The notes beneath the pieces are model-generated. The model made no database searches and had not been told where the DNA came from. It was given only the letters and a program-made list of their open reading frames with translations. Source: Minisyncoccota bacterium (lineage in GTDB: Bacteria; Patescibacteriota; Minisyncoccia; Phycocordibacterales; UBA918). From it: a stretch of 64,000 bases of DNA. The translations under genes were made by a program, and so were the position numbers. Positions 512 to 57,682 of this stretch are shown here, piece after piece. The stretch is from assembly GCA_041389045.1 (NCBI GenBank), contig JAWKSQ010000002.1:23898-87897 (forward strand), in the 5' to 3' direction. The first letter of the stretch is position 1; each line of letters opens with the position of its first letter.

Positions 512-1072
512 CTAATCATTACTAGCGAATTCATCTTCTGCTGGTCTTACCATCTCAATAACAGGTAGTGTTCCTTTATATGGTTCAATTTCTGTGTCTG
601 TTTTCTTAAAACCATATTTTTCATAGAAACCAATTGCGGAACTATTAAAACCAAAAGCTTCCAAGCGGGAATACTTATTCTTATCTGACCAAGCCAAAAA
701 TTCCTCCATCAGCTTACTACCAGTACCTGAACCTTTAGCTTCATTTAGTAAATATATTGCTTCTAGTTCATTATGACTTTCTTGTTTAGAGCCATGTAAA
801 AAACCTACTATATCTCCATTTTCATTCTTTACTACTCTATAAAGAACGTTTTCGGGATTACTTAATGCTTCCTGAATAATCTTTTTTCTAAAGTCAGTAT
901 TAGTTAACATTGAACCTTTCATTTCATCAACCATCTCATTAGTAAGCCCTGACTCGGGGACGACATATGTTTCTTTCCAGGCCTGTATATGCATGGTAGC
1001 TAAAGCCAGCTCCTCCCCTTCAGTAGGTAGCTCAATTCTGAACACAGGAGCCTTTTCTGCGTAATTTTCCAT
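512..1072 (-). CDS. GNAT family N-acetyltransferase
   Basis: 186-aa ORF with an acetyl-CoA binding-like segment (IYLLNEAKGSGTGSKLMEEF...FYEKYGFKK). Confidence 0.8.
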   Translation of the reverse strand: MENYAEKAPVFRIELPTEGEELALATMHIQAWKETYVVPESGLTNEMVDEMKGSMLTNTDFRKKIIQEALSNPENVLYRVVKNENGDIVGFLHGSKQESHNELEAIYLLNEAKGSGTGSKLMEEFLAWSDKNKYSRLEAFGFNSSAIGFYEKYGFKKTDTEIEPYKGTLPVIEMVRPAEDEFASND

Positions 1073-5981: not shown

Positions 5982-6386
5982 TTACTTCTTAGCTACCTTC
6001 TTTACAGCTTTCTTAACTGCCTTTTTGGCGGCCTTTTTCTTTGGCGCAGCAGTTTTTACAATACCACCCCAATGATCTTTCATTTCCTTCTTGAAAGCTG
6101 AAAGTTCATTCTTAGAAGCACTTTTAGCTCCTTGGTAAGTTGTCACTACTGAATCGACTAACTGTTCATATTCTTCCTTAGTCATACCCTGGGCTTTTTC
6201 CAAACCTTCTAGCACTTCCGCTTTAGCCTTCAGAGCCCAACTCTTAACTAGCTTACGATTCTTAGCGGCATTCTTACTACCATACAAAAAATATCCTCCC
6301 GCCATAGCCGCTACTGCTGCCGTAATGCCGACCCCAAGACCAATTGCTTGTTTATTCGAAATCTCCACCTTCTTTTTTGCTGCCAT
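5982..6386 (-). CDS. membrane-anchored protein with lysine-rich tail
   Basis: The likely start is MAAKKK, the 24th codon of ORF 5982-6455. It has one TM segment (IGLGVGITAAVAAMAGGYFLY) and a C-terminal KKAAKKAVKKAVKKVAKK. Confidence 0.6.
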   Translation of the reverse strand: MAAKKKVEISNKQAIGLGVGITAAVAAMAGGYFLYGSKNAAKNRKLVKSWALKAKAEVLEGLEKAQGMTKEEYEQLVDSVVTTYQGAKSASKNELSAFKKEMKDHWGGIVKTAAPKKKAAKKAVKKAVKKVAKK

Positions 6387-15138: not shown

Positions 15139-16479
15139 TTAAATCCCAAAATTACGAAGTGAGTAGAGGTCATTATCATCCTCATCAACTTTTTTCTCTG
15201 ACTCCGGCTTTTCCTCTGATTTTACTTCTTCTACAGGAGCTGGTACCTCTTCTATATTTACCTCCATCTCATTTGAGGCTGAGACATCTTCATTAGCTAA
15301 AGCCTGGGTCGGAACTTCTTCTACCACCACCTCTGATACGACTGTCTCTTCAGGAACATCGGCGCTCACAACCGGCATAGACTCAGGTAAAGACTCTGAG
15401 TTAACCGGATCTGTCTCAAGTACTCTTTCAGATACTACTGGCACATTATCTGCCTCAACAGCTACTGCTGTAGTAACTCCTTCCGTCACCAAATCCTTAT
15501 CGGTGGCGCTCATTAAAACATCAAACCTTCCCTCCTCTTTGTAAGGCTCTGACTCAAGTTCTTCCTTCGCTGACACTGACTCTGCTAGTGGAGTATTGGC
15601 TACTAAAGCCGCCAACTGAGCGTGTCTAGACGTTTCCACGGTCGGAGCCGTTTCCTCAGCTTTCATCCTAACCAACATCGCTTCCAAATCTTCCACTGAG
15701 AAGTAGTCAATAGTCAGTTTTCCACCGTAGTCAGTCTTCTGTATCTGCACTCTCGTACCAAGTGTTTCCATAAACTTCTTTTCCATTTCGATGAGCTCAG
15801 AATCAAATTCAGCCGGATCCTTTTTACGCACCTTGTCAGTCGCTATCTTGCGGACAATTCTTTCCACTTCACGCACCGATAACTTTTTGAGGAGAATCTC
15901 CCGGAAGACCACATCCTGTTCCTCAGGACGGTCATTGAGCATAAGCAGTGTTCGTGCATGACCTTCAGTCATTTCTCCTAGGCGTAGAGAATTCTGCATA
16001 TAGTCAGGCAGACCGAGAAGGCGGATGGAGTTAGAAACATACTCACGACTTCGTCCCACCTTTCGTGCTACCTGAACATGTGAAAGTCCAAATACATCTG
16101 CCAATTGCCGGAAAGCTAGGGCTCGATCAACCGCATTGAGATCTTCACGCTGCAGGTTTTCAATGATGGCTAGTTCTAGTTTTTCTTGTTCGCTATCTTC
16201 ACCTTCACGAATAATCACCGGGACCTGATTCAGTCCCGCCAATTTACTAGCCCTTAGTCTTCGTTCACCCGCAATAAGTTCATATTCAGTATAAAAAGTC
16301 CCATCTTCGCGTTGTATTTCCTTCCTAGTTACCGTCAGTGGTTGCAAAATACCGTACATTCGTACCGACTCCGACAACTCTTTTAGCTTTTGCTCGTCAA
16401 ACTCCCGCCGTGGTTGAAACGGATTAGGAACAATTTTTTCTACTTCTACCCAGTATATTGAATCACCCTGAAATGCCAT
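15139..16479 (-). CDS. parB: ParB/Spo0J partition protein with a long acidic C-terminal extension
   Basis: Contains PNPFQPRREF, LIAGERRLRA and an HTH region. The last ~170 aa are rich in E, V, S and P. The start is taken at MAFQGDS. Confidence 0.9.
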   Translation of the reverse strand: MAFQGDSIYWVEVEKIVPNPFQPRREFDEQKLKELSESVRMYGILQPLTVTRKEIQREDGTFYTEYELIAGERRLRASKLAGLNQVPVIIREGEDSEQEKLELAIIENLQREDLNAVDRALAFRQLADVFGLSHVQVARKVGRSREYVSNSIRLLGLPDYMQNSLRLGEMTEGHARTLLMLNDRPEEQDVVFREILLKKLSVREVERIVRKIATDKVRKKDPAEFDSELIEMEKKFMETLGTRVQIQKTDYGGKLTIDYFSVEDLEAMLVRMKAEETAPTVETSRHAQLAALVANTPLAESVSAKEELESEPYKEEGRFDVLMSATDKDLVTEGVTTAVAVEADNVPVVSERVLETDPVNSESLPESMPVVSADVPEETVVSEVVVEEVPTQALANEDVSASNEMEVNIEEVPAPVEEVKSEEKPESEKKVDEDDNDLYSLRNFGI

Positions 16480-16721
16480 ACAAACAAAATAAATATAATT
16501 ACCCCCGCAAGTACCCAAACTTGCTTGATTTAACTATTCTAACACATTTAGAATCGCCTCCCTGTTTATAACTTTCCAGTTTTCTGCTAGACTGTCACAC
16601 ACCGCCGCGGTGACAGTATAAAAGTAAACTGCTTTACTTTTATACGTTTCGCCAAGGCAACAGTGGACGATACGAACCTAGCGAGTCAGTTCACAAAAAA
16701 TCAAATTTTTGTTTTCAAAGT

Positions 16722-18130: not shown

Positions 18131-18262
18131 GAAAGCAAATAGTTTTGCTTTCGTGCTCGAGCGGGAGACGGAGACATGTCGCTTTTCGACAGTCGAGTCG
18201 GGGTCGAGAACACTTAGTAGATTTAGAGCGAAGCGAATAAATATACTTAGTGATTCGTGACC
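18131..18262 (+). repeat. tRNA-linked mosaic structured repeat, unit A
   Basis: Conserved hairpin GAAAGCAAATAGTTTTGCTTTC, then CTCGAGCGGG (18156-18165), which is the reverse complement of the tRNA-Trp end CCCGCTCGAG (18077-18086). The core is GGGGTCGAGAACACTTAGTAGATTTAGAGCGAAGCGAATAAATATACTTAGTGATTCGTGACC. Confidence 0.8.
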
Positions 18263-18425
18263 GCAAAAAAGTGGACACAATGTATCCCGTTCCTGTAAGG
18301 AAAGAATCCTCGTGACCGCAAGAAAGTGGCCACAAGGTGTACTGGTCGTGTAACGACCGAAATTCTTCGTTAGTACTTAGTAGAATTAGAGCGAAGCGAA
18401 GAATTATACTTAGTAATTTGTGACC
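18263..18425 (+). repeat. mosaic repeat, unit B (beta segment plus second core)
   Basis: GTTCCTGTAAGGAAAGAATCCTCGTGACCGC, followed by GTACTTAGTAGAATTAGAGCGAAGCGAAGAATTATACTTAGTAATTTGTGACC. Confidence 0.75.
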
Positions 18426-18452
18426 ACAAAAGAAACTACACCAGATACCGGA

Positions 18453-20172: not shown

Positions 20173-20334
20173 TCTAATGTGCGCCGGAGCAAGCAAATAG
20201 TTTTGCTTGCTTGAGGGATTCAAAAGCGCAGCGATGCCGAAGGCGAGCGAGCTGGGGTCGAGAGTACTTAGTAGAATTAGAGCGTAGCGAATAATTATAC
20301 TTAGTAACTCGTGACCGAATCCTTTCCTCCCGGC
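20173..20334 (+). repeat. tRNA-linked mosaic structured repeat, unit C (archetype)
   Basis: TGCGCCGG (20180-87) and GAGGGATTC (20213-21) are the reverse complement of the tRNA-Tyr 3' strands. They are split by AGCAAGCAAATAGTTTTGCTTGCT. The core ends in CTCGTGACC (20316). GAATCCTTTCCTCCCGGC (20317-34) follows. Confidence 0.85.
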
Positions 20335-21167: not shown

Positions 21168-21557
21168 CTAGAAAGTGGCAAAGATCTTTCTGTTGCCTGA
21201 ATCAATTCGAACCATACCACCATACGGCATTGGGATCTGCGGTTCTGTGTGACCAAAATCCATATTCTGAACAATAGGTATTTCTTTGTTGTAGGCACGA
21301 ACAATTTTTACAATTGTATCTTGCTGTTCCTTTCTGTACGCAACTCGTTCTTCAAGACTTCGCATGTTATCAAATTCACGTGCTTTAGCTCGTCCTACGC
21401 AAATACCCTTTACTCGCGAAAGTACACCTCGTTCCCCTAATGCACGGAAGAATCTCATAACATAATCAGAAGATGGTATCTCTTCTGAAGTTTCCATCAT
21501 AAGTACGATATCTTCAAATTGCTCTAGAGACGGGCTATCAACTCCGTGTCGCAACAT
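21168..21557 (-). CDS. LD-carboxypeptidase (S66/MccF-like), C-terminal fragment
   Basis: Contains MDFGHTEPQIPMPYGG. It continues from 21640-22203 after a 1-nt frameshift near 21643-21650. Confidence 0.75.
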   Translation of the reverse strand: MLRHGVDSPSLEQFEDIVLMMETSEEIPSSDYVMRFFRALGERGVLSRVKGICVGRAKAREFDNMRSLEERVAYRKEQQDTIVKIVRAYNKEIPIVQNMDFGHTEPQIPMPYGGMVRIDSGNRKIFATF

Positions 21558-21639: not shown

Positions 21640-22203
21640 TCATACTCTCTCCTTATTCAGCTGTTCAACATCACCCCAATCTAATCCAATATCATTAAAA
21701 GACTTACTTGACATAAGTTCAAACTCTCCCTCATCAAACAAAGCGTGTCTGATGTACTCTACTGTATATGGATTCATTTCTTTCTGATGTGCAAACTGGG
21801 TGAATAGCGCGGCTCCGTAGAATGACGGTATTCCATTTAAAAACAGAAAGTTACAAAAATGTGAGTTATCACTGTATCCAAAAAATGGTTTTGTATTATC
21901 TACAAACGGTTTACTGAGAAGATTTTTGATATACGTTACTTGTATATCACCGCCAAGAGTTGATATAACTGCTTTAATTTCTGGATCAGAAAATGCAGCA
22001 ATGATATCATTAGCTTTTTCCTCAAGAGTAGCGTCGAGTATAGCTGTAGTTGGATACATTACAGGTTCAAGTTCAAATACTTCACGAAGGCGCTTAAGTC
22101 CCAAATCATGAACGTGTGGCCACACAGCTGACGCGGCAAAACTCGGTGACACAATTGCAACCTTATCCCCTTTCTTTAATTTGGGTATTTTTTTCATTTT
22201 CAT
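21640..22203 (-). CDS. LD-carboxypeptidase (S66/MccF-like), N-terminal fragment
   Basis: Contains KGDKVAIVSPS and the GYSDNSH nucleophile motif. The linking segment YEPNEGWSWDGSKSAEGLLWGGCLESIDEMLRHG is readable in another frame. Confidence 0.75.
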   Translation of the reverse strand: MKMKKIPKLKKGDKVAIVSPSFAASAVWPHVHDLGLKRLREVFELEPVMYPTTAILDATLEEKANDIIAAFSDPEIKAVISTLGGDIQVTYIKNLLSKPFVDNTKPFFGYSDNSHFCNFLFLNGIPSFYGAALFTQFAHQKEMNPYTVEYIRHALFDEGEFELMSSKSFNDIGLDWGDVEQLNKERV

Positions 22204-22352: not shown

Positions 22353-23072
22353 CTAAAAGGAAAGGTCGATTATAGAGACTTTCGGCTTTGGTAAACTACT
22401 CCTTGAATCATGTAAACCATCTCCTACACCAACTAAGAGGTATTCATTTGTTGCACAATCAAAAGCACAGACCTTATCATATATTTTTACAAGTCTTTCA
22501 TTTAAATCTACATTTATAGTAACTAATGGAGCACATAAATGTTTGGAGCAATCAGGAAAATCACCAGTTACTCCCTCAATCTGAATTTCATCTTGATTCC
22601 ATGTTTTAATAGACAAAAAATCTAACTGACGCACATCCCACGCATTAAAGTGTTGTTCATAGACACAAAGCATTTCCTCTTTCCAACAACGCAACATTAC
22701 ATCTGTAACACTCTCTAATGAACCCGAGATTTCTACTGAAATAGGTGCCAATTCTCCCTGTACAAACAACTGTCCACTAGAAGTTGAATAGGCTTTAAAA
22801 GTGTATTCTGAAAATAACATTTCCTTACTTATAGGACTACTTCCAGTAGATAAATTTTGATTAATATTCAAACTTTCGTTAGGTACTATGTTTTGTACAA
22901 CAAACCTATCAACTATCTTCTCCGGCGCATACATATACCCAATCCAACCCCCGATAAACGGCATTGCCAGGAAAAGAAACATTGCCAAGTACTTTGATAA
23001 CGGAGTTACTTTCTTGAGATTAGTAAATTTATCTTCTTGTATAGATGTTTGTGAGGTGACATCTGGTTCCAT
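22353..23072 (-). CDS. hypothetical membrane-anchored protein
   Basis: 239 aa with one TM segment (YLAMFLFLAMPFIGGWIGYMY). AT-rich. Confidence 0.6.
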   Translation of the reverse strand: MEPDVTSQTSIQEDKFTNLKKVTPLSKYLAMFLFLAMPFIGGWIGYMYAPEKIVDRFVVQNIVPNESLNINQNLSTGSSPISKEMLFSEYTFKAYSTSSGQLFVQGELAPISVEISGSLESVTDVMLRCWKEEMLCVYEQHFNAWDVRQLDFLSIKTWNQDEIQIEGVTGDFPDCSKHLCAPLVTINVDLNERLVKIYDKVCAFDCATNEYLLVGVGDGLHDSRSSLPKPKVSIIDLSF

Positions 23073-23128
23073 ATCTAATAATCATATCACGCAGTATGTA
23101 TTATCTATCAAGTTCAATGAGCAAAACA

Positions 23129-23164
23129 AATACCACAATTAATTACGTAATTAATTCTGGTATT
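23129..23164. promoter_or_regulatory. 36-bp palindrome, copy 1 (35/36 identical to copy 2)
   Basis: AATACCACAATTAATTACGTAATTAATTCTGGTATT. It lies just upstream of the promoter region of the minus-strand gene 22353-23072. Confidence 0.6.
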
Positions 23165-23179
23165 CCATTTTTTAAGACA

Positions 23180-24313
23180 CTAACTCTGAAAATACTTTTT
23201 TCCTTTAAGTTTATCCGGCAGGAGAGATTCACCTTTCTCTGGATACATTTCATAACCTTCTCCATATCCCTCTTCTTTCATTAATTTAGTCGAAGCATTT
23301 CGTAAAGACAGCGGAATTGGCAGATTGCCGAAATTCTTTATATCTCTTTGCACCGCCCGAAGAGCATCGTAAGCACGCCGATCTTTCTTAGCTGTCGCTA
23401 GGTATACCACCCCGTGAGCTAAATTGATAGCGCATTCCGGATAGCCAATAGTTTCGGTGGTGCGAAAGACTTCGTTTGCTACCACGAGCGCCGTGGGCAG
23501 AGCCATCCCTATATCCTCACTAGCAAATATAACCATGCGTCTAGCAATAAACTTGGGATCTTCCCCACTTTCTATCATGCGAGCTAGGTAATAAAGCGCG
23601 GCGTCAGGGTCAGAGGCACGCATACTTTTTATAAAAGCACTAATGGTATTGTAGTGTTCTTCACCTTGTTTATCATAACGAAGAAAAGTACTCTGGAGCG
23701 CCTCAGACATAGTGTCAACCGTCACTTTACCGTAAAGTGATTTGGTCTCTTCGAGTAGAGTTAGCATCTGTCTAGCGTCACCATTAGCCACCCGAATTAG
23801 CCATTCCCGGGAATTTTTATCAAGCTTAATTTTAGTCGACTTTATAATCGCCTCCATATTTTCTGGAGTAAGTTCATGCAAAGTAAAAACCCGGCAACGA
23901 GAAAGTAAAGCTGAAATAACTTCAAAACTTGGATTTTCGGTCGTAGCGCCAATCAATGTCAGCGCCCCACTTTCTACAAAAGGTAGCAGGTAATCCTGCT
24001 GGGCTTTATTAAAGCGATGGATTTCATCTAAGAAAAGAACTTTGGATTCTTCCGTTTCTTCATCGATAATCTTCTTAATATCGGCCTTACCAGCACTAAC
24101 AGCCGACAGCTCGTAAAAGCGTACTCCGAGAGCCTGCGCGTAGATGCGTGCCAAGGTAGTCTTTCCTACCCCAGGTGGTCCCCAGAGAATAAAAGAAAAC
24201 AAATGTTTCTTATCAATTGCTTCCCGCAAAGGCTTACCTGGGCCCACCAAGTGTTCTTGCCCAATGAGACTATCAAGGGTAGTTGGTCTAAGTCGTGAAG
24301 CCAGTGGTTCCAT
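23180..24313 (-). CDS. rarA: replication-associated recombination protein A (AAA+)
   Basis: Contains RPTTLDSLIGQEHL, GPPGVGKTT, DEIHRFNK, and a MgsA C-terminal region. Confidence 0.9.
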   Translation of the reverse strand: MEPLASRLRPTTLDSLIGQEHLVGPGKPLREAIDKKHLFSFILWGPPGVGKTTLARIYAQALGVRFYELSAVSAGKADIKKIIDEETEESKVLFLDEIHRFNKAQQDYLLPFVESGALTLIGATTENPSFEVISALLSRCRVFTLHELTPENMEAIIKSTKIKLDKNSREWLIRVANGDARQMLTLLEETKSLYGKVTVDTMSEALQSTFLRYDKQGEEHYNTISAFIKSMRASDPDAALYYLARMIESGEDPKFIARRMVIFASEDIGMALPTALVVANEVFRTTETIGYPECAINLAHGVVYLATAKKDRRAYDALRAVQRDIKNFGNLPIPLSLRNASTKLMKEEGYGEGYEMYPEKGESLLPDKLKGKKYFQS

Positions 24314-24439
24314 TTCCCTATGCTACCTCTCTTAGCAACAGAAGAAAAGTCTGTCATTTATAGCTAATAGTTGTTAAATAACTAAAATCTTGTACGATAG
24401 ATTTCGGCAATCCCATCAACGACTACAGGAGGAGCTGAC

Positions 24440-25063
24440 ATGGCTACGACACGCGTCTTGATTTCCTGGTTCCTTTTGATCCTTGCTAGCGGTCTCATGC
24501 CGGCCCTGGCCGACACAGTCCCAAAGCCACTGAACTATGAGCTACCTGCTGATGAAGTTGAAGGGACTACGAGCTATTTGATTAATACGCTACCCAGCAC
24601 AGCACCGAAAGAGCCACTGTGCCATGCGGTCTCGACTACAGTCTTCATCGGCTCACATCATCACGGAAAGAGTAACCATGGTCGTCTCAACGAAGATAAC
24701 CATGGGTTGTCCGGAACCTGTTACTTCGATGAAGAAAGAAATCTCTACAGCATCATTGGCGGGCTCGAAAACAGTCAGTTCGGTACAACCGTATTTGCTG
24801 GCCCCGGTATACGAGTGAGGACAGCGGAATTGGCTCGAGTTTCTCTTGAAGTGGGACTTGAGCTACCACTGATCTACTACCGTGCACCAGGACTGAACAA
24901 AGAAAGATTTGGTATCCTACCCATTCTCTATCTTGGCCTGAGCTATCGCTTACCCAACAATTGGGGCTATATCGAAGTCTCGCAACGTCGACTCGGAATA
25001 CTGGGTGTAGCTAACAAGAAAGTTGACCTTTACTCAATTGCATGGACACATAAGTTCAAGTGA
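24440..25063 (+). CDS. secreted hypothetical protein, G+C-rich orphan
   Basis: Signal peptide (LILASGLMPALA). The C-terminal half has alternating beta-like strands and ends WTHKFK. The function was not recognised. Confidence 0.6.
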   Translation: MATTRVLISWFLLILASGLMPALADTVPKPLNYELPADEVEGTTSYLINTLPSTAPKEPLCHAVSTTVFIGSHHHGKSNHGRLNEDNHGLSGTCYFDEERNLYSIIGGLENSQFGTTVFAGPGIRVRTAELARVSLEVGLELPLIYYRAPGLNKERFGILPILYLGLSYRLPNNWGYIEVSQRRLGILGVANKKVDLYSIAWTHKFK

Positions 25064-25084
25064 CTGTCCACCAAAATGAATCAT

Positions 25085-25119
25085 CGCCCTAGCACACTTA
25101 GTGCTGGGGCGATTTTCTT
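25085..25119 (+). terminator. rho-independent terminator
   Basis: CGCCCTAGCAC-ACTTA-GTGCTGGGGCG followed by ATTTTCTT. Confidence 0.8.
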
Positions 25120-25254
25120 ATATTTAATTTAAAGCTGAAATTTGACTTTTATTTCTCTTACTTGTTAACTGTCACACATGCTCAGTAGATCCTGGGTGCT
25201 CTTTGAGGAAAAACCATGGTCATCAAATAACAGGACGTCATCCGTCAATACTAT

Positions 25255-25575
25255 GTGGAGGCATTGACAGATGCCACAAACGAGCAAGTGACTCTTTGTC
25301 TGGACGAAGCCGGTGAATCAACCCCTACTAACACCAAACAAACAATTCGTGTTGGTAAGAGAACTATTTACGGCGTCTACTTTGTTCCTGAAGAGATTTT
25401 GAGGAAACTTCTCAAATCAGAACATAGGAACAATATCAATGTTTATGCACAAGGAAGTGACGGCGAAATACTTCCCTTTACGGATACTTCAAAAATCCTA
25501 AAGACCGCTTCTTTATGTGGCGCCATTAAGTCAAAAAGCAACGCCGTAAAGGCATTGCGACGAAAAAGAGGCTGA
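25255..25575 (+). CDS. hypothetical protein (weak)
   Basis: 106-aa ORF from a GTG with no clear RBS. A terminator lies at 25610-25642. Confidence 0.35.
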   Translation: MEALTDATNEQVTLCLDEAGESTPTNTKQTIRVGKRTIYGVYFVPEEILRKLLKSEHRNNINVYAQGSDGEILPFTDTSKILKTASLCGAIKSKSNAVKALRRKRG

Positions 25576-25609
25576 TTAGCAAAACCACAACTTGACCGGC
25601 AACCAAAGC

Positions 25610-25642
25610 AACTCCAGCCTTCCAGCTGGAGTTTCTTCTTTC
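25610..25642 (+). terminator. rho-independent terminator
   Basis: AACTCCAGC-CTTCC-AGCTGGAGTT followed by TCTTCTTTC. Confidence 0.75.
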
Positions 25643-25651
25643 GAAATCATA

Positions 25652-25687
25652 AATACCACAATTAATTACGTAATTAATTGTGGTATT
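25652..25687. promoter_or_regulatory. 36-bp perfect palindrome, copy 2 (candidate operator/activator site)
   Basis: AATACCACAATTAATTAC|GTAATTAATTGTGGTATT. It ends 2 nt before the TTGACA at 25690. Confidence 0.6.
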
Positions 25688-25689
25688 GA

Positions 25690-25718
25690 TTGACATTTCA
25701 TTTCAGAAAGCGCTAAAT
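25690..25718 (+). promoter_or_regulatory. sigma70-like promoter
   Basis: TTGACA-N17-CTAAAT. Confidence 0.5.
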
Positions 25719-25777
25719 ACTATTATGTCTCAGCACAATGGGTGTCTGAGTTGTTCTTAACCAAGTGGAGAAAAACC

Positions 25778-26236
25778 ATGCAACCTCTTGACCCTGAAAT
25801 TTTGGAAAAAATCGCCAATATGACTGGCTGTCCAATCTGGAAAATCCAGATTGACTTGGGTAAAGCACCCACAGTGACTTGCCCCGCCGTCAATCAAAGA
25901 GAAGCTATGCTTTCTTACCACCGGGCAGTGAGTGGCAGTGAAAAAGCCTATGTCGCCCTGAAAAAATGGGACGAGTTTTCCATACAAGCCATCGAATCGG
26001 CCCAAACGGTACTCGCGGTCTACGTCGCTATCAACTTCTCATCCCAATCAACTGAATTGCGAATGGCTGCTGACAAAAAAATTGACGCGATCTTGAGAGA
26101 ATTAATCAAGTCTGCTGAAACGGTGGAAGAACTGATGGAAATTTACCCATCTTGCCCACCAGATAGCCAAGTTCATAGCTCGCTGGCTCAGAAGCTATAC
26201 AACATGATGATGATGTCAGTACCAACACGCAAATGA
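25778..26236 (+). CDS. hypothetical protein, G+C-rich orphan
   Basis: GGAG lies 8 nt upstream of ATG 25778 (MQPLDPEIL...). A terminator follows at 26251-26283. Confidence 0.55.
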   Translation: MQPLDPEILEKIANMTGCPIWKIQIDLGKAPTVTCPAVNQREAMLSYHRAVSGSEKAYVALKKWDEFSIQAIESAQTVLAVYVAINFSSQSTELRMAADKKIDAILRELIKSAETVEELMEIYPSCPPDSQVHSSLAQKLYNMMMMSVPTRK

Positions 26237-26250
26237 ACATGTTCCATCTC

Positions 26251-26283
26251 GTGTCCCAGCCAAGGCTGGGACACTTTCATTTG
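26251..26283 (+). terminator. rho-independent terminator
   Basis: GTGTCCCAGCC-AA-GGCTGGGACAC followed by TTTCATTT. Confidence 0.7.
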
Positions 26284-26469
26284 ACTTCACCTGAACTGAC
26301 GTGCTACATTTTCACGTATGACCACCCGAAGTTTTGTTTACTTTTTCTTCTTTAGTACGCGAGAGCGGGCGGTCTAATTCTGTTTTAGAGATTCGAATTA
26401 CATCCGCCTCCTGGCGGCTTTTTTAATCTCTTTGTTCTTTTTGTTCTTTACAACAACACCGGAGGTCAC

Positions 26470-26940
26470 ATGCTGATGAAAGCAACGAGTTTGATTCTGG
26501 AGAATGTCACCATACCCGCCATTTCCATTGCGAACATGGTCAAAGACCATCAAGCTTTTTTTCAAGATGGTCAACTTATGTTCTTGGGTGACGGTTACCA
26601 TAAGGAACTGGGAGTGGCCGGTAGGTATGTAGTCACCCAAGCCAATAACCTTCTGGCGGAAAGTCTGAAAGGAAACTGGCGTCTTTGTACAGCCCGTGAA
26701 ATAGTTTGGTTGTATATCACATCACAACTGGAAGAGCTGGATACTCTGTATAGTGGAGCCAAAATCCCCACTGACAGCCATGTATATTGGTCAAATCATA
26801 GGTCAAATAGCTTCCGAGCGGTGTTAGTTTTCCTGCGGGACGGACTTATCGATTTCGAAACTTATGACCCAGACTCCTTAGACGACAGGCATAATGCTCT
26901 CTGGATTCAGAGACTGCCCGAGAAAAATGTTCGCGCCTAG
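26470..26940 (+). CDS. hypothetical protein, G+C-rich orphan
   Basis: A GGAGG RBS lies 5 nt before the ATG. 156 aa. A terminator follows at 26952-26986. Confidence 0.6.
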   Translation: MLMKATSLILENVTIPAISIANMVKDHQAFFQDGQLMFLGDGYHKELGVAGRYVVTQANNLLAESLKGNWRLCTAREIVWLYITSQLEELDTLYSGAKIPTDSHVYWSNHRSNSFRAVLVFLRDGLIDFETYDPDSLDDRHNALWIQRLPEKNVRA

Positions 26941-26951
26941 CGCAGAAGCGA

Positions 26952-26986
26952 TCGGCCGTCACACTTGTGTGACGGCCGACTTTTTT
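26952..26986 (+). terminator. rho-independent terminator
   Basis: TCGGCCGTCACAC-TTG-TGTGACGGCCGA followed by CTTTTTT. Confidence 0.85.
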
Positions 26987-27043
26987 GTACTTATCCAAAA
27001 ACTTTTTATATTAAGTTAATGAGTAGCGTATAATGAAATAATC

Positions 27044-27976
27044 ATGAATAAGATCATGCCGTCCCTTGCTGTATCTTTGACGCTGTTTGCTTTTGCTTTT
27101 TTACTCTATTCCATTTCTCTATGGGACACCGCTTGGGCTAGTCCACAACTTACTTACACTTTTCTTATTTTAGGTAGTACCCATTTAGTTTTTAGGGTGT
27201 TGGTCTATTCCCTACTACTCAGACACATTCAATCTGGTCGAGTCAGATATAGTTTAAGCAAAACCCTAACCCTACTGCACTTATTTATTGCTTCACTATT
27301 TATTCTGCGTATCTGGCTCCCTGACTCGACAACTTTATTGGCTGCCTACGGATTTGTCGCTGCCGCGGTCGCTTTTTCAATTCAAGATTTATTCAAAAAC
27401 TTTATTGGTGGAGCGGTTATTTTAGTACGTAGTTTATATAAGGTTGGTGATCGTATCCAGATCGGTGAAACTTACGGTGATATTATCGACATTGGTGTAC
27501 TCTATACCACTCTACTAGAAATCCGTGCCTGGGTCGCCGGCGACCAATCAACTGGTCGCATCATCCGAGTCCCTAACGGAAAAGTCATTACCAGTGACGT
27601 TATCAACTATACGGCTGACCATTCATTTATCTGGGACGAATTACATATACCTGTCACTCACGAAAGTGACTGGCGTAGAGCCGAACAGATCCTTACCGAT
27701 ATCATAAATGAGCTCACTAACGAATTGAACGCTTCCGCCATGGAAGAAATCCGCCATTTGCAATCCAAGTATTTCCTGACTAATGAAAATGTCGATCCGC
27801 ATGTTTACATGGTTATTACCGACAACTGGATTAGTCTCTACGCTCGCTATATCGTGAGTGCTCGTGAGCGCAGAAACGTACAAGACAAAATTATGCGCCA
27901 GATCAAAGACCGCTTCGATAACGAACCTGGAATTATTATTGCTTCCGAAACAACTACTATCACGGTTTCAAAATAA
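27044..27976 (+). CDS. mscS: mechanosensitive ion channel (MscS family)
   Basis: TM helices followed by FSIQDLFKNFIGGAVILVRSLYKVGDRIQIGETYGDIIDIG. Confidence 0.85.
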   Translation: MNKIMPSLAVSLTLFAFAFLLYSISLWDTAWASPQLTYTFLILGSTHLVFRVLVYSLLLRHIQSGRVRYSLSKTLTLLHLFIASLFILRIWLPDSTTLLAAYGFVAAAVAFSIQDLFKNFIGGAVILVRSLYKVGDRIQIGETYGDIIDIGVLYTTLLEIRAWVAGDQSTGRIIRVPNGKVITSDVINYTADHSFIWDELHIPVTHESDWRRAEQILTDIINELTNELNASAMEEIRHLQSKYFLTNENVDPHVYMVITDNWISLYARYIVSARERRNVQDKIMRQIKDRFDNEPGIIIASETTTITVSK

Positions 27977-27978
27977 TT

Positions 27979-29358
27979 ATGTCAAAAGATATCTCACCAT
28001 TTTTTCGTAAACTATTTAATCTTCGTGAAGGAGCCGAAGATAAAGCCACTATTATCGAAAACGTAAAAGACGATGCGGATTTTAGTAGTGCCCGTTTTTG
28101 GACACTGGTCTGTGCCATTGTTGTAGCTTCAGTTGGGCTGAACATCAACTCTGTCCCGGTTGTTATTGGTGCCATGCTTATTTCCCCGCTAACGGGACCA
28201 ATCGTTAGCCTCGGCCTAGCTCTTTCTATTAACGATTGGGGACTAATGCGCAGATCATTACGTAACCTACTCACCTTAATTACTATCAGTATAGTAATCT
28301 CCACCCTCTACTTCGCCCTGTCACCCATTGATAACGCGCAGTCAGAACTACTAGCCCGTATAAAACCAACTATTTTTGACGTCCTTATTGCTATCTTTGG
28401 TGGTGTAGCTGGCTTTATTGGTATCAGTCGCGCCAGACACAGCAACATCATTCCTGGTGTAGCTATTGCCACCGCTATCATGCCACCACTTTGTACAGTT
28501 GGTTATGGTATTGGTACTCTGCAACCACAATTCATTTTTGGTGCTTTTTATCTTTTCTTAATTAACTGTATCTTTATTTGTCTATCTGCTTTAGTGGTCG
28601 CTTCATACATGAAACTACCCAAGCGTGACTACCCTGAACCCGAAAAGAAGTTACGCGTGAAAAGAATTATCACCTTAATTATATTAGTGATTGTTAGTCC
28701 AGCGATTTACTTGGCCTTTACTTTCGTCGACCAGAATAATTTTTACTTAAACGCCGAAAACTTTCTACAAACCACTTTTACCAATAACGGTCACGTCATT
28801 ATCTACCAAAATCTCAAGTATGAGTCGAACCAAAACACTATCGAAGTAGCATTTTTGTCTGACCATTTTTCCGACAGTGAAATTGCTGACTTTGAAGCCA
28901 GATTACCAAATTTTAATCTCAAGAAAACCAAACTTATTATTCGCCAAAACGGTTATTCTTTGACTGAAGAAGATTGGCAAGAGGCTCTAAGTAACATCAG
29001 AAGTACCACAGAAGCTACTAAAGTCTTTGACGCCAAACTAGCCTCAGAACTAGAGAAGAAACGTAACCCTAACCAACTACTCACAGAACTACAGGCTTTA
29101 AATCCAAACATTGCTAGCGTCTCAATCGGTACACTTGAAACTAGCGAATCTAACCCAGGTGATAACAAAAAAACTACTAACATCATCTTCGTCTACACCG
29201 GAGAAAAAAGTAAAGTCCTAGGAAAAGATGAAGCTGGACGGATTAGTGACTGGCTAAGAGTGAGGCTAGAAGATCCGTCTCTTATCGTACACTTCAACCC
29301 CTTAACCCAAAGAGAAATGCTGGGCGGGTCAGGAGAAATACTTAAGGTGCGAGAATAA
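27979..29358 (+). CDS. DUF389-type integral membrane protein
   Basis: Contains GAMLISPLTGPI and repeated hydrophobic blocks. The C-terminal domain is soluble. Confidence 0.65.
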   Translation: MSKDISPFFRKLFNLREGAEDKATIIENVKDDADFSSARFWTLVCAIVVASVGLNINSVPVVIGAMLISPLTGPIVSLGLALSINDWGLMRRSLRNLLTLITISIVISTLYFALSPIDNAQSELLARIKPTIFDVLIAIFGGVAGFIGISRARHSNIIPGVAIATAIMPPLCTVGYGIGTLQPQFIFGAFYLFLINCIFICLSALVVASYMKLPKRDYPEPEKKLRVKRIITLIILVIVSPAIYLAFTFVDQNNFYLNAENFLQTTFTNNGHVIIYQNLKYESNQNTIEVAFLSDHFSDSEIADFEARLPNFNLKKTKLIIRQNGYSLTEEDWQEALSNIRSTTEATKVFDAKLASELEKKRNPNQLLTELQALNPNIASVSIGTLETSESNPGDNKKTTNIIFVYTGEKSKVLGKDEAGRISDWLRVRLEDPSLIVHFNPLTQREMLGGSGEILKVRE

Positions 29359-29397
29359 CAAAAGCCGGACGACTCGTAGAGTCGTCCGGCTTTTGTT
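29357..29397. terminator. bidirectional terminator
   Basis: AACAAAAGCCGGACGACTC-GTA-GAGTCGTCCGGCTTTTGTT. Confidence 0.85.
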
Positions 29398-29408
29398 ATT
29401 TAGTGATC

Positions 29409-32210: not shown

Positions 32211-32756
32211 TTATCGAGTCAATGTTTTCATTTTCTGACAGAAGTCAGTCAGCACAACCACGACTTTTTGAAGATCTTTTTTACTGGTTTTTTCACTAAG
32301 AGATAAGCGGATAGTTGCAGTAGCTCGTTGCTTATCCTTGGTCATGACTGCTACTACATGACTCAGTCCCCCTCCCGCTCCGGCACAAGCACTCTTGGTA
32401 CTAGCGGAGATGTCGTGTGAATCCAAAAAGACTACCGCGTATTCAGTGTCAAAGCCAGGCAGAGAAATATTTATATTATTTGCTAGTCGCTCTGTCCCTA
32501 CTGGACCATTAAGGACCGCTCCTGGCACCTGACTTAAAATATTTGCCATGGCTTCATCTCTCACTTTCTGCACCTTCAGAGCTCGCTTCTCGTAGGAAGC
32601 TTGGGCTAAAGATAAAGCCACAGCCGTACCAACTATTCCAGGCACATTCTCGGTCCCTGGTCTAAGTCCCCCTTCCTGTCCACCACCATAAGTAATCGGT
32701 GCAAAATCACTCAGTCTGCGAGAAGCTAATATCCCTATCCTTTTGGACCATGACAC
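32211..32756 (-). CDS. cysteine desulfurase (NifS/IscS-like), C-terminal fragment
   Basis: Contains GGGQEGGLRPGTENV and STKSACAG. It is joined to the middle fragment by a 1-nt indel near 32736-32746 (HGPKG|IGILA). Confidence 0.8.
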   Translation of the reverse strand: MSWSKRIGILASRRLSDFAPITYGGGQEGGLRPGTENVPGIVGTAVALSLAQASYEKRALKVQKVRDEAMANILSQVPGAVLNGPVGTERLANNINISLPGFDTEYAVVFLDSHDISASTKSACAGAGGGLSHVVAVMTKDKQRATATIRLSLSEKTSKKDLQKVVVVLTDFCQKMKTLTR

Positions 32757-33046
32757 TTACCAGCATCTAGCGCCATACTGTCGACACCGAGTTTGGCAAA
32801 AGCACAAGGAAGCCAGAGCGGAGCCTGCGCAGCATCTAGGTGAACTGAAATAGTTACTGAGTTTTTCTGGGCAAAATTTCTAATTACCCTCGTGAGTCGC
32901 GAGACGGGTTGCACTGTACCAACTTCACTATTGGCATAAGCCAATACCACCAGCACAGTTCGTGATGACAAGACTTTTTCCAAAGCTGGTATCGTAATAA
33001 GACCCACCTCATCCACCGCGACAAACTTTATTTTTACACCGAGCAT
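32735..33046 (-). CDS. cysteine desulfurase, middle fragment
   Basis: Contains LAYANSEVGTVQP and DAAQA...ALDAGKCHGPKG, which is the PLP-lysine region. Confidence 0.8.
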   Translation of the reverse strand: MLGVKIKFVAVDEVGLITIPALEKVLSSRTVLVVLAYANSEVGTVQPVSRLTRVIRNFAQKNSVTISVHLDAAQAPLWLPCAFAKLGVDSMALDAGKCHGPKG

Positions 33047-33414
33047 TTTAGCTTTGGCAAAAGTGACAAAATAGAAGGATGTTCAATTTCCGTTGTCACA
33101 ATCTCCATCTCTGTATACTTTTTCCCTGACGCTTTTAATTTTTCTATATAACCAAGTATGGCCAAATTGTTACTTTCAGTTCCACTACCGGTAAAAATCA
33201 CTCCGCTACTTTTAATCCCTAGTACAGTCGCCACTTCTTGCCTTGCCTCTTCCACCGCCAGGCGAGCTACCTGACCTTCTTTATGTATCGCACTTGGATT
33301 ACCAAAATTACTGGTGAAGTAAGGTTTCATCTTTGACAAAACCTTCGGATCAACTGGTGTAGCGGCAGCATTATCGAGGTAAATTCGCTTTTTTGGCTCG
33401 AGTTTTTTAGACAT
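33034..33414 (-). CDS. cysteine desulfurase, N-terminal fragment
   Basis: Contains IYLDNAAATPVDPKV, FGNPSAIH and TGSGTESNN. A frameshift lies at the T4/A4 run 33046-33049. Confidence 0.8.
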   Translation of the reverse strand: MSKKLEPKKRIYLDNAAATPVDPKVLSKMKPYFTSNFGNPSAIHKEGQVARLAVEEARQEVATVLGIKSSGVIFTGSGTESNNLAILGYIEKLKASGKKYTEMEIVTTEIEHPSILSLLPKLKCSV

Positions 33415-33519
33415 GACAAAAATCATGACATAGCGTGTCAAATATGTAAATCTCTGCTATACTCGCAGTACTTTTAATTATCAGCGCGCCTGAGTAGGCG
33501 TTTTTACGTATTACTACTT

Positions 33520-35721: not shown

Positions 35722-35804
35722 GCCCAGATGGTGTAATTGGTAGCCACGCAAGACTTAAAATTTTGTGTCACAAGGCCGTGCGGGTTCAATTCCCGCTCTG
35801 GGCA
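35722..35804 (+). tRNA. tRNA-Leu(TAA)
   Basis: GCCCAGA...CAAGA CTTAAAA TTTTG, a long variable arm, GCGGG TTCAATT CCCGC, TCTGGGC A. Confidence 0.9.
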
Positions 35805-35847
35805 CCTATAGAAGTAAACAACCACCGGACTTAGGTCCGGTGGCTTT

Positions 35848-36450
35848 GGTTCATCCTAGTCGGATGAACCATCTGCCGGCTTAAGCCGGCTGATCTGTAG
35901 TTGCTAGGAGATTAGTTTGTTAAATAGTGATGGTTGATCAACTTGATTATGATGATCTTGATGCTTCACGTACCGACGGATAATCATTTCATCTAGACCG
36001 ATCGTAGAGACGAAATAACCTCTGGCCCAGAGTGATTCTTTTTCATAGAGACCATGAGCACGTTTTATTTTCTTCTTCATCCAAGCTGAGCTTTTACCTT
36101 TAATTATTTGCATCAGGTACGAGACTGAATCCCTCGGAGAAGCACTCAGTATTAAGTGGATATGATCATCTTGGATGTTTAGTTCGATTATTTCCCAGTG
36201 TCTGTATTTAGTGATTGATTCAAAAGTACGTCTCAATTCATCTTTAACCTTTTGTGGTCCTAGTACCTTGCCTCGGTATTTTGGAGTCCAGACGAGATGG
36301 TATTTCATCTCGTAGTAACAATGTGCTAGTGTTTTAATGGTAGGTTTGCGCATACGTATTTAGTTATTACTAAAGCCAGTTGGGCGTCACCGGCTTTAGT
36401 ATATCTGTTGCCTTCAACGTACTCTCTGGCTGAAGCCGGAGGTTTTTAGA
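35848..36450 (-). mobile_element. IS200-type insertion sequence (approximate ends)
   Basis: A single Y1 transposase gene is flanked by subterminal hairpins of related sequence: GCCGGCTTAAGCCGGC (35875-35890) and GGCTGAAGCCGG (36431-36442). Further hairpins are GGTTCATCC..GGATGAACC and TACTAAAGCC..GGCTTTAGTA. The exact ends were not determined. Confidence 0.6.
35904..36353 (-). CDS. tnpA: IS200/IS605 family Y1 (HUH) transposase TnpA
   Basis: Contains YHLVWTPKYRGKVL, HUH (DHIHLIL) and the catalytic-Tyr region WARGYFVSTIG. Confidence 0.95.
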   Translation of the reverse strand: MRKPTIKTLAHCYYEMKYHLVWTPKYRGKVLGPQKVKDELRRTFESITKYRHWEIIELNIQDDHIHLILSASPRDSVSYLMQIIKGKSSAWMKKKIKRAHGLYEKESLWARGYFVSTIGLDEMIIRRYVKHQDHHNQVDQPSLFNKLIS

Positions 36451-36489
36451 TAATAAAACAACCAGCTAAAAGCTGGTTGTTTTATTTCA

Positions 36490-36619
36490 GGTGCCCAGAG
36501 CGGGAATTGAAAGGCGGAGCGATGTGAGCTTGCGAACCAGCGAGCCGGGGTCGAGAACACTTAGTTGATTTGGAGTCGAAGACGAACAAATCTACTTAGT
36601 GATTCGTGACCAATTCCCG
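36490..36619 (+). repeat. tRNA-linked mosaic structured repeat, unit E
   Basis: GGTGCCCAGAGCGGGAATTGAA (36490-36511) is the perfect 22-nt reverse complement of the tRNA-Leu(TAA) end (35785-35806). The core is GCGGAGCGATGTGAGCTTGCGAACCAGCGAGCCGGGGTCGAGAACACTTAGTTGATTTGGAGTCGAAGACGAACAAATCTACTTAGTGATTCGTGACC, followed by AATTCCCG. Confidence 0.85.
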
Positions 36620-37395: not shown

Positions 37396-37468
37396 GCGCC
37401 TTTAGCTCAGTTGGTAGAGCAGCTCCCTCTTGGAGACGGTCCAAGGTTCGAGCCTTGAAGGCGCACCA
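37396..37468 (+). tRNA. tRNA-like gene (Lys-CTT-like) with encoded CCA and non-canonical anticodon and T loops
   Basis: GCGCCTT TA GCTC AGTTGGTA GAGC A GCTCC CTCTT GGAGA CGGTC CAAGG TTCGAG CCTTG AAGGCGC A CCA. It has a 5-nt anticodon loop and a 6-nt T loop. Function is doubtful, or indel errors are present. Confidence 0.4.
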
Positions 37469-37960
37469 AGGTGAATACAAAAACACTGGTTTTTTAAACC
37501 AGTGTTTTTGTATTCAGGAAGCAAACTGCTTTGCTTTCGTACCTTGGTGCGAGTCGGAGACATATTTCTTTTCTTGCCTAGAAAAGAAATAGTCGAGACC
37601 GGGGTGAGAAAGTGTCTAAACACTTTCGCAAGACCTTTTGAGAAATTTATTTCCAAAAGGTGTATCGCTTCTGTAAGAAGAAAGTTCTTATGAGCGTAGC
37701 GAATTAGAAACTTGACCCCGCAAAAAACTGCCACCCGGCAGTTTTTTAATATGTGCGCCTTCAAGGTGTAGCTTTTCGTTAAGAAAAGCGTTACACGGCT
37801 CGAAAAGCTTTTGCGATAGATTCGACTGAAAGGAGAATATATCCAAAAGGTGTACAGTTCCTGTAAGGAAAGAGCCATTGTTTTTATGTATTGTGTAGAA
37901 ATAATTATATTAAGTAACTCGTGACCACAAAGCGTTACACGGCTCGACATAAAGAAACCC
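37469..37960 (+). repeat. composite mosaic repeat region F
   Basis: A 17-bp perfect hairpin is followed by GAAGCAAACTGCTTTGCTTTC. CCTTGGTGCG (37542-51) and GTGCGCCTTCAAGG (37753-66) are both reverse complements of the tRNA-like 3' end. The short core variant is GGGGTGAGAAAGTGTCTAAACACTTTCGCAAGACC. Beta segments AAAAGGTGTA...CTGTAAG(G/A)AA(A/G)A occur twice. The terminal sequence is TAAGTAACTCGTGACC. Confidence 0.7.
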
Positions 37961-57340: not shown

Positions 57341-57492
57341 GCAAAAATGCGAACCGCAAAGCGGAGCGATGTGAGTCGCCTCTTCCCAGGACGACGAACC
57401 AGCGAGCTGGGGTCGAGAACACTTAGTAGATTTCGCACGTAGTGCAGAAATATACTTAGTGATTCGTGACCGGTTCCTACTTTTGCGTTTGC
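57341..57492 (+). repeat. mosaic structured repeat, unit H1 (no tRNA nearby)
   Basis: The outer arms GCAAAAATGCGAACCG and CGGTTCCTACTTTTGCGTTTGC are complementary. The core is GCGGAGCGATGTGA[GTCG..CGAC]GAACCAGCGAGCTGGGGTCGAGAACACTTAGTAGATTTCGCACGTAGTGCAGAAATATACTTAGTGATTCGTGACC. Confidence 0.85.
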
Positions 57493-57518
57493 ATAATTAA
57501 AATAATTTAGCTTCCAAA

Positions 57519-57651
57519 AAAGCGGTGCCGACGGGCGTAGCGATGTGAACCGCCCCATCTTAGGGCGGTGAACCAGCGAGCCGAGTCGACAAGTACTTAG
57601 TTTTTTATGAACGTAGAGATATAAAAAGCTTAGTAACTTGTGACCGGTTCC
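57519..57651 (+). repeat. mosaic structured repeat, unit H2
   Basis: GCGTAGCGATGTGA[ACCGCCC-CATCTTA-GGGCGGT]GAACCAGCGAGCCGAGTCGACAAGTACTTAGTTTTTTATGAACGTAGAGATATAAAAAGCTTAGTAACTTGTGACCGGTTCC. Confidence 0.8.
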
Positions 57652-57682
57652 AGCCTGCTAAATAAATCTATTTAAATTCCAG

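Follow-up and report, generated by a model that had tools for sequence, protein, structure and literature searches.

A perfect 36-bp palindrome in a Minisyncoccota contig as the likely operator of an uncharacterised 58-aa AbrB-fold regulator of the Candidate Phyla Radiation

The stretch of Minisyncoccota contig JAWKSQ010000002.1 analysed here, 64 kb long and hereafter called the window, carries two copies of a 36-bp palindrome, and comparison with other genomes of the Candidate Phyla Radiation (CPR, or Patescibacteria) suggests that this palindrome is probably the operator of a 58-aa orphan regulator of the AbrB/MazE/SpoVT fold that is widespread in these bacteria. As far as sequences and predicted structures can tell, the regulator is likely to be an uncharacterised, CPR-wide mini-regulator whose palindromic operators are unusually long, perfect, and co-evolving. 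The pair was found where the initial annotation had placed it (Table 1). Copy 2 is a perfect 18+18 palindrome, AATACCACAATTAATTAC-GTAATTAATTGTGGTATT (a hyphen marks the centre here and below; in full AATACCACAATTAATTACGTAATTAATTGTGGTATT), and copy 1 shares 35/36 positions with it, the difference being a G-to-C change at position 29, on the arm facing the 3' end of rarA, where no gene begins. With up to 3 mismatches allowed, the full site matched twice in the 64 kb and not once in 100 dinucleotide-preserving shuffles, and at this threshold neither the full site nor its 18-bp core nor its half-site revealed any extra copy in the window (0-0.16 matches in the shuffles). The repeat unit common to both copies is 37 nt long, and the sequences flanking it are unrelated. 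An Rfam search of the window and 18 loci gave no match at the palindromes.

Searches of GTDB representative genomes with the 18-nt half-site, and of JGI metagenomes with the 22-nt core, recovered the 36-mer or near-identical variants from CPR contigs in about 15 distinct intergenic settings, with 1-2 copies per genome. The same 36-mer is perfectly kept in loci L027/L052, L029/L057, L051/L062, L054, and L056/L058; in L045, L046, L055, and L060 there is instead a variant carrying a symmetric double change (AATAACAC...GTGTTATT), L048 has a hybrid of the two, and decayed or rearranged forms were found in L002/L049/L053, L008, L020, L047/L050, L059, and L061. Every site is intergenic, and the flanks differ in each independent context. 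The GTDB representatives with a perfect site (L027, L029) hold one copy per genome; thus, this is a low-copy element and not a generic repeat, which the initial annotation had named as an outcome against its own reading. L027 and L058 have the site in the same syntenic place (dnaG, a small open reading frame (ORF), the site, rpoC), and there the palindrome is identical at 36/36 positions amid spacer flanks that cannot be aligned, indicating strong purifying selection on all 36 positions.

A gene for a 58-aa protein begins close to the palindrome in several loci: 9-10 nt away in L029/L057 and L046, and 22 nt away in L020, which has a frameshifted gene and a site with 2 mismatches; in L051/L062 the distance is 195 nt. 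Of the roughly 15 intergenic settings, six have the palindrome upstream of such a gene, at 2-22 nt and once at 195 nt. The protein, with the consensus MARRxLxERNVRKLxKxxGG..LVSLPxExVxxLxWRxxQKVVVxKxGxxLIIEDWK, matches Pfam family PF04014 (MazE/SpoVT-AbrB; E = 5.8e-6), and by sequence it matched no NCBIfam model and no solved structure in the PDB. Its AlphaFold (AF2) model has a pLDDT (predicted local distance difference test score) of 89.7, and the top Foldseek matches of this model were MazE (1ub4, 1mvf), VapB-DNA complexes (3zvk, 5l6l), the N-terminal domain of AbrB bound to DNA (2k1n), and SpoVT. A profile search returned 2227 homologues in 521 clusters at 50% identity, of which 196 have E <= 1e-10; the homologues are 57-61 aa long and carry labels such as Kaiserbacteria, Parcubacteria, Paceibacterota, and Vogelbacteria. 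No toxin partner is conserved beside the gene in 11 loci, and the downstream neighbours differ in every locus, several of them being convergent. The regulator for which the initial annotation advised a search was a helix-turn-helix protein, and this expectation did not hold, as the likely regulator has the AbrB/MazE swapped-hairpin fold and has no gene in the window.

Seven further homologue loci were fetched through the protein and not through the DNA, and their palindromes are listed in Table 1. All independent homologue loci (11/11) have a 36-40-bp palindrome upstream of the ATG, at a distance from the gene of 2-61 nt in 10 loci and 195 nt in one; 8 of these palindromes are perfect, 2 deviate only in the central 4 nt, and the one beside a decayed gene has 2 mismatches. 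From lineage to lineage the palindrome sequence varies, its two arms changing jointly and in step with the lineage of the adjacent protein. When the best palindromes upstream of each gene were aligned on their centres (11 distinct sites), 98% of the cells were Watson-Crick symmetric and changes fell on both arms at 16/18 positions, a score reached by 0/500 shuffles or slid controls, and one-sided or wobble changes were almost absent. The central tetranucleotides are themselves palindromic (ACGT, CTAG, CCGG, CATG) except in L064/L069 (GTGT); since an RNA hairpin loop has no need of a palindromic centre, it is probably in the DNA that the symmetry is recognised, by a ligand with two-fold symmetry. 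The inner arm motif ATTAAyTnn-nnArTTAAT is common to the sites and would be the shared recognition core, and the outer parts vary by lineage. In the 732 kb of fetched DNA, almost all long palindromes without a central gap belong to this family, and the few exceptions are G+C-rich terminators or similar operator-like sites.

These results also bear on the alternative that the sites are operators of a different regulator, with the AbrB-fold gene merely its commonest target, or are symmetric divergent promoters with no dedicated repressor. The outer ends of the palindrome do resemble extended -10 elements in both directions, and in L060 a TrpR-like gene has perfect 36-bp palindromes of its own, at its start codon and downstream, which indicates that a palindrome placed at a regulator gene is a general architecture in these genomes. 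However, the palindrome sequence changes together with the lineage of the adjacent protein, a plain promoter needs no symmetry of the inner arms, and AbrB, MazE, and VapB proteins, DNA complexes of which (3zvk, 5l6l, 2k1n, 2mru) are among the fold matches, normally control their own genes from an operator at the promoter. We therefore regard this alternative as unlikely. The L060 palindromes (563-598 and 1025-1060) are two copies of a different sequence (..AAATCTTATCATA-TATGATAAGATTT..), both containing TGaTAAGAT; one abuts the start codon of the Trp-repressor-family gene (608-1024, minus strand; PF01371), and the other lies just past its stop codon, upstream of the next ORF. A Trp-repressor-type palindrome stands 14 nt from the AbrB-type palindrome in this locus.

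Table 1. Features beside the two palindrome copies of the window, and palindromes at homologue loci fetched through the protein
Feature or locus	Position in the window, or palindrome	Strand	Remarks
Palindrome copy 1	23129..23164	.	35/36; putative operator site
Palindrome copy 2	25652..25687	.	perfect 18+18; putative operator site
Predicted membrane protein gene, 239 aa	22353..23072	-	35% GC; no Pfam family; putative regulated target
Extended -10-like TGaTATGAT	23081..23089	-	8 nt before ATG of 22353-23072; candidate with leaderless-type geometry
rarA/mgsA	23180..24313	-	context gene between the copies; product 100% identical to MEZ4195275.1 (Candidatus Paceibacterota, metagenome-assembled genome)
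G+C-rich canonical terminator of ORF 25255-25575	25610..25633	+	immediately before copy 2
Candidate promoter region for 25778-26236	25690..25726	+	read from the sequence; putative
Hypothetical gene, 152 aa	25778..26236	+	GGAG Shine-Dalgarno; no Pfam family; putative regulated target
L063	AATACCGTAATAAATGAC-GTCATTTATTACGGTATT		8 nt to ATG
L064	AATACCACAATTAATTgtgtAATTAATTGTGGTATT		9 nt to ATG; asymmetric only in central 4 nt
L069	core as in L064, arms extend to 22 nt		2 nt to ATG; asymmetric only in central 4 nt
L065/66	AACTCTTGAATTAACTCT-AGAGTTAATTCAAGAGTT		25 nt to ATG
L078	TAACTCTTGGATTAACTCC-GGAGTTAATCCAAGAGTTA		12 nt to ATG
L067/68	TATTTCAGTAATTAATTCA-TGAATTAATTACTGAAATA		61 nt to ATG
L070	CCTGCTCTAGAGCTAACTCT-AGAGTTAGCTCTAGAGCAGG		20 nt to ATG

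Other palindromic sequences were seen in some of these loci. The dnaG-rpoC spacer holds another perfect 32-bp palindrome (TCTAAACATACCTGTT-AACAGGTATGTTTAGA; L058:684-715, also L056:2515-2546) 15 nt after the main one, and in L027 (5963-6214; also L052) a second, related palindrome (AATACCCATTTAAATTG-CAATTTAAATGGGTATT, 6181-6214) stands at a distance of 218 nt from the main palindrome. The DNA between these two has unusually good RNA folding (z = -6.25, several perfect hairpins), belongs to no Rfam family, and could be a small RNA gene. L063 has a 28-bp perfect palindrome (15281-15308, TAAATAACACAATTAATTGTGTTATTTA) upstream of an asparagine synthase gene, which equals the AATAACAC variant minus its central 12 bp (one helical turn); the AbrB gene of that genome has a different palindrome. 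The half-sites ACCACAACTAATTAC and GTAATTAATTGTGGTATTT lie about 70 nt apart in L022 (1139-1241), as if there had been an insertion at the palindrome centre.

The position of the palindrome relative to the AbrB-fold gene suggests how the regulator may act. At the AbrB genes a candidate -10 hexamer straddles the palindrome edge, combining its last four bases (TATT) with two flanking bases; the resulting hexamers TATTCT, TATTAT, and TATTGT, and TATAAT in L078, have T at position 6, are often preceded by TGn, and are followed by the ATG 6-8 nt further on. At the gene of the regulator itself, the outer ends of the palindrome (TGTGGTATT) and the 2 flanking bases would thus make up an extended -10 element, and with the ATG about 7 nt after this edge -10, the operator would enclose an extended -10 promoter for a leaderless transcript. 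By occupying the site, the protein would occlude RNA polymerase and, because the promoter lies inside the operator, would autorepress its gene. The symmetry of the palindrome may also let one site serve divergent genes, such as those for a glyoxalase (L046/L051), an LtrA-like protein (L063), and a membrane protein (L020).

Known systems resemble this one in part. The predicted fold of the 58-aa protein is that of the N-terminal domain of AbrB, Abh, and SpoVT of Bacillus (PF04014, swapped-hairpin barrel), and these regulators, as proposed for the 58-aa protein, have a small basic DNA-binding domain that forms dimers or tetramers, are autoregulated at their own promoter, and have further regulon sites elsewhere. 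However, the 58-aa protein lacks a C-terminal domain for multimerisation, the sites here are long perfect palindromes, in contrast to AbrB, for which no strict consensus exists, and the sequence similarity to the AbrB family is marginal (Pfam E = 6e-6, none in NCBIfam or, by sequence, in the PDB). The best structural matches are the AbrB-type antitoxins MazE and VapB (1ub4, 1mvf, 3zvk, 5l6l), which bind inverted repeats over their own promoter, with two dimers per operator in VapBC-DNA structures; unlike them, the 58-aa protein has no toxin partner in the 11 loci and no C-terminal toxin-binding tail, and extra copies of its putative operator occur at unrelated genes. Stand-alone AbrB-fold proteins of about 56-68 aa without a partner are represented by C68/C56 of the Sulfolobus plasmids pSSVx/pSSVi (3o27, 7xi6), but these come from archaeal plasmids and give lower TM-scores (0.40-0.44), and we know of no comparable palindromic operator for them. 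The operators of small dimeric repressors such as Arc/Mnt and TrpR share two-fold symmetry, -10 overlap, and autoregulation with the operators proposed here, but they are 18-21 bp long and usually imperfect, whereas these palindromes reach 36-40 bp and are perfect to the central base pair.

The two copies in the window would be further regulon sites of the AbrB-fold regulator that have no complete -10 and abut the -35 or the upstream region of target promoters. Their flanks yield the edge hexamers TATTTG, TATTCC, TATTGA, and TATTTA, none of which has T at position 6; thus, the window copies are probably not promoters themselves, and they abut -35-like hexamers only, each on the gene-facing side. 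Copy 1 stands 56 nt upstream of the ATG of the minus-strand membrane protein gene; its edge is overlapped by TTGTTT (-35-like), and TGaTATGAT, the same promoter style as at the AbrB-linked sites, lies 42 nt further on. Copy 2 lies 76 nt after ORF 25255-25575, and the ATG of 25778-26236 is 90 nt downstream of it. For this gene the initial annotation had proposed a TTGACA-N17-CTAAAT promoter, whose hexamers and spacing are present, with TTGACA (25690-95) starting 2 nt after copy 2 and CTAAAT at 25713-18; however, CTAAAT is poor as a -10 (3/6, no A at position 2) and is not listed by the consensus promoter scan, and TATTAT at 25721-26 is a better candidate. We consider this promoter plausible, its -35 being credible and its -10 weak; the scan called neither of the promoters proposed beside the window copies. 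From this layout we infer that the copies are secondary regulon sites upstream of the promoters of 22353-23072 and 25778-26236, whose expression their occupancy may modulate with either sign, and it might also block read-through from rarA and orf106. The upstream geometry is similar at the Kaiserbacteria site in L067. Of the two ORFs between the copies that were initially described as G+C-rich orphans, 24440-25063 does have 48.9% GC against 43.6% for the window, but its syntenic homologues adjoin rarA in relatives, and 25255-25575, at 42.7%, is not G+C-rich.

The location of copy 1, 15 nt after the rarA stop codon and followed by UGUUUUG on that strand, also suggests a bidirectional intrinsic terminator or insulator, in which a 16-bp AU-rich hairpin would end rarA and neighbouring transcripts. 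The hairpin energies of the palindromes beat those of shuffles, a terminator scan picked out copy 2, though solely on the minus strand, A-runs stand to the left and T-runs to the right of several homologous sites, and some homologous sites are placed between convergent genes (L054, L055). Nevertheless, genuine terminators of these genomes differ from one another, are rich in G+C, and have loops of 3-4 nt, whereas the palindrome stem has 3 G-C pairs only and its terminator features are not conserved across the homologous sites. Copy 2 directly follows a canonical G+C-rich terminator and is therefore not needed as one. A terminator would also leave unexplained the 36/36 identity across genomes, the palindromic centre, the lack of G-U-type changes, and the fixed place before AbrB-fold genes, upstream of the putative transcription start. 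We judge termination to be an improbable function of the element.

Several points weigh against the reading of the palindrome as the operator of the AbrB-fold regulator. Four relatives whose rarA is 83-87% identical have no palindrome beside this gene, and none was found at the orthologous rarA loci L071-L077; L076/L077 hold a partial homologue (56% over 62 aa) of the 239-aa membrane protein, again without the palindrome. The window copies overlap no convincing core promoter, and a regulatory effect there is conjecture. A dimer of the 58-aa protein alone cannot cover 36 bp; considering this together with the VapB-DNA complexes, we infer that one dimer would bind each arm, giving two dimers, or a tetramer, per 36 bp. 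The perfect conservation of 36 positions exceeds what typical operators need. The covariation set was composed of the best palindrome upstream of each gene, which is a selection bias, though the perfection is itself the observation. A tblastn search (E <= 10) of the 64-kb window with the AbrB-family protein found no gene, and the regulator is presumably encoded elsewhere in this genome, outside the 64 kb. Literature searches returned nothing relevant.

The four relatives keep the gene order IF2 (initiation factor 2), aminotransferase, ClpB, orf207, and rarA, and orf207 and ClpB are adjacent in three related genomes. The window has about 4.3 kb extra between orf207 and ClpB (25100-29400), comprising orf106, palindrome copy 2, orf152, orf156, and genes for an MscS-like and a DUF389 protein. 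Because the palindromes are missing at the rarA of relatives and copy 2 lies inside the extra segment, the two sites are probably recent acquisitions and not ancient ones. Conservation in relatives, which the initial annotation had advised checking, differs between places, the site being kept at 36/36 in the syntenic dnaG-rpoC spacer but missing beside rarA. In the same region, where the relatives have one class-V aminotransferase gene of 399-410 aa between ClpB and IF-2, the window has three short overlapping ORFs (32211-33441, minus strand), and its version is probably frameshifted.

Such rearrangement could also fit a mobile element. The palindrome might be the footprint or end-pair of such an element (a miniature inverted-repeat transposable element, or MITE, or terminal inverted repeats) or a site-specific recombination site (Xer/dif-like, or used by an integrase), in which case the 2.5-kb segment between the two copies would be mobilisable. 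The identical sequence occurs in many unrelated contexts, rearranged or duplicated variants exist in L008 and L061 as well as the separated half-sites of L022, the gene order around rarA differs from that of relatives on both sides, with variable genes downstream of rarA and the extra segment between orf207 and ClpB, and an IS200-type transposase gene lies 10 kb away. However, no recombinase or transposase adjoins any copy, no target-site duplications were seen, and nothing is common beyond the 37 nt; rarA and orf207, which lie between the copies, are a conserved syntenic core in relatives and not cargo. Viral contigs and phage records gave no match beyond chance half-sites, and plasmid records gave only a non-palindromic chance match, a Vibrio plasmid region with direct AATTACG repeats. 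The fully symmetric core would give recombination no directionality, the GC skew is monotonic across the window and does not switch at the copies, and a mobile element would not account for lineage-specific, covarying versions tied to one gene family at a fixed spacing. We consider this explanation quite improbable. Accordingly, of the two functions proposed in the initial annotation, a dimeric regulator site has strong comparative support (intergenic, low-copy, 36/36 identical at a syntenic position, and linked to a gene of DNA-binding fold with covarying palindromes), but a recombination site is unsupported, there being no recombinase, no target duplications, and a symmetric core.

Three specific candidates of this kind were rejected. 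Terminal inverted repeats of an insertion sequence or MITE do not fit the lack of target-site duplications, the 1-2 copies per genome, and the lack of an adjacent transposase; a Xer/dif site does not fit two copies 2.5 kb apart, the monotonic skew, and the symmetric core; and a protelomerase site or hairpin telomere does not fit the other sites, which are internal to contigs of 30-260 kb with housekeeping genes, nor the lack of a viral or phage match. The last candidate was suggested by contig L045, which opens with a perfect 84-nt palindrome (1-84) that has the site at its centre and folded-back flanks on either side; de Bruijn assembly at so long a palindrome most likely produced this structure as an artefact. 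The ends of several further contigs lie less than 400 nt from a site.

A parS-like centromere or nucleoid-organising site, bound by ParB or another nucleoid protein, has very little probability. A complete ParB with N-terminal, helix-turn-helix, and dimerisation domains is encoded in the window (15139-16518, minus strand), 6.6 kb away, and no parS-like site (<=2 mismatches) occurs anywhere in the 64 kb. The parS sites are perfect palindromes with a CACGTG centre, highly conserved and clustered near parB. The palindrome, however, matches the parS consensus TGTTNCACGTGAAACA at 8/16 positions; canonical parS was found neither in the window nor in any of the loci, and ParB is missing from the other palindrome loci except for a ParB-like gene in L046 that lies 5 kb away and is 24% identical. 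Besides, parS shows no lineage-specific divergence, and its position would not be tied to the start codon of an AbrB-fold gene.

The AbrB-fold operator may be part of something wider. It is conceivable, though we hold it only tentatively, that the 58-60-aa proteins form a phylum-wide, undescribed orphan AbrB-fold family whose perfect 36-40-bp operators double as symmetric, divergent, leaderless promoters, with arms evolving in concert so that each lineage has a private operator code and a small regulon; such concerted evolution could come from strict two-fold readout by two dimers or from hairpin-templated homogenisation. In CPR bacteria the genomes are very small, recognisable regulators are few, and hardly any regulon has been defined by experiment, and such a family, if real, could be among the few dedicated transcription switches in these reduced genomes. 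With a lineage-specific operator of 36-40 bp, the regulon should be computable across thousands of uncultured genomes, and the mini-regulator and its operator are amenable to direct study with a synthetic peptide and an oligonucleotide. The concerted and perfect changes of the arms would also offer a clean natural data set on the co-evolution of protein-DNA specificity. For the window, this reading would give two anonymous intergenic elements a probable function and tie two hypothetical genes to a common control.

The window has a few other features of interest. A repeat family of up to 78 nt, with 5-7 copies that are 65-95% identical (18186-18432, 20240-20323, 36533-36611, 37898-37926, and 57395-57652), has an internal inverted motif (CACTTAGTAGATTT...ATATACTTAGTG), and several of its copies lie near tRNA genes. 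A perfect inverted repeat of 23 nt (35785-35807 / 36489-36511) flanks the IS200-type Y1 transposase gene (35904-36353, minus strand; PF01797, E = 7e-33), and one arm of the repeat coincides with the 3' end of tRNA-Leu(taa). The N- and C-terminal domains of an LD-carboxypeptidase (Peptidase_S66) are encoded by separate ORFs (21168-21557 and 21640-22203, minus strand), which may reflect a frameshift, a pseudogene, or an error of assembly. At 37396-37468 on the plus strand, ARAGORN reports a tRNA with an undetermined anticodon ('ct'), which Rfam also scores as a tRNA (53 bits).

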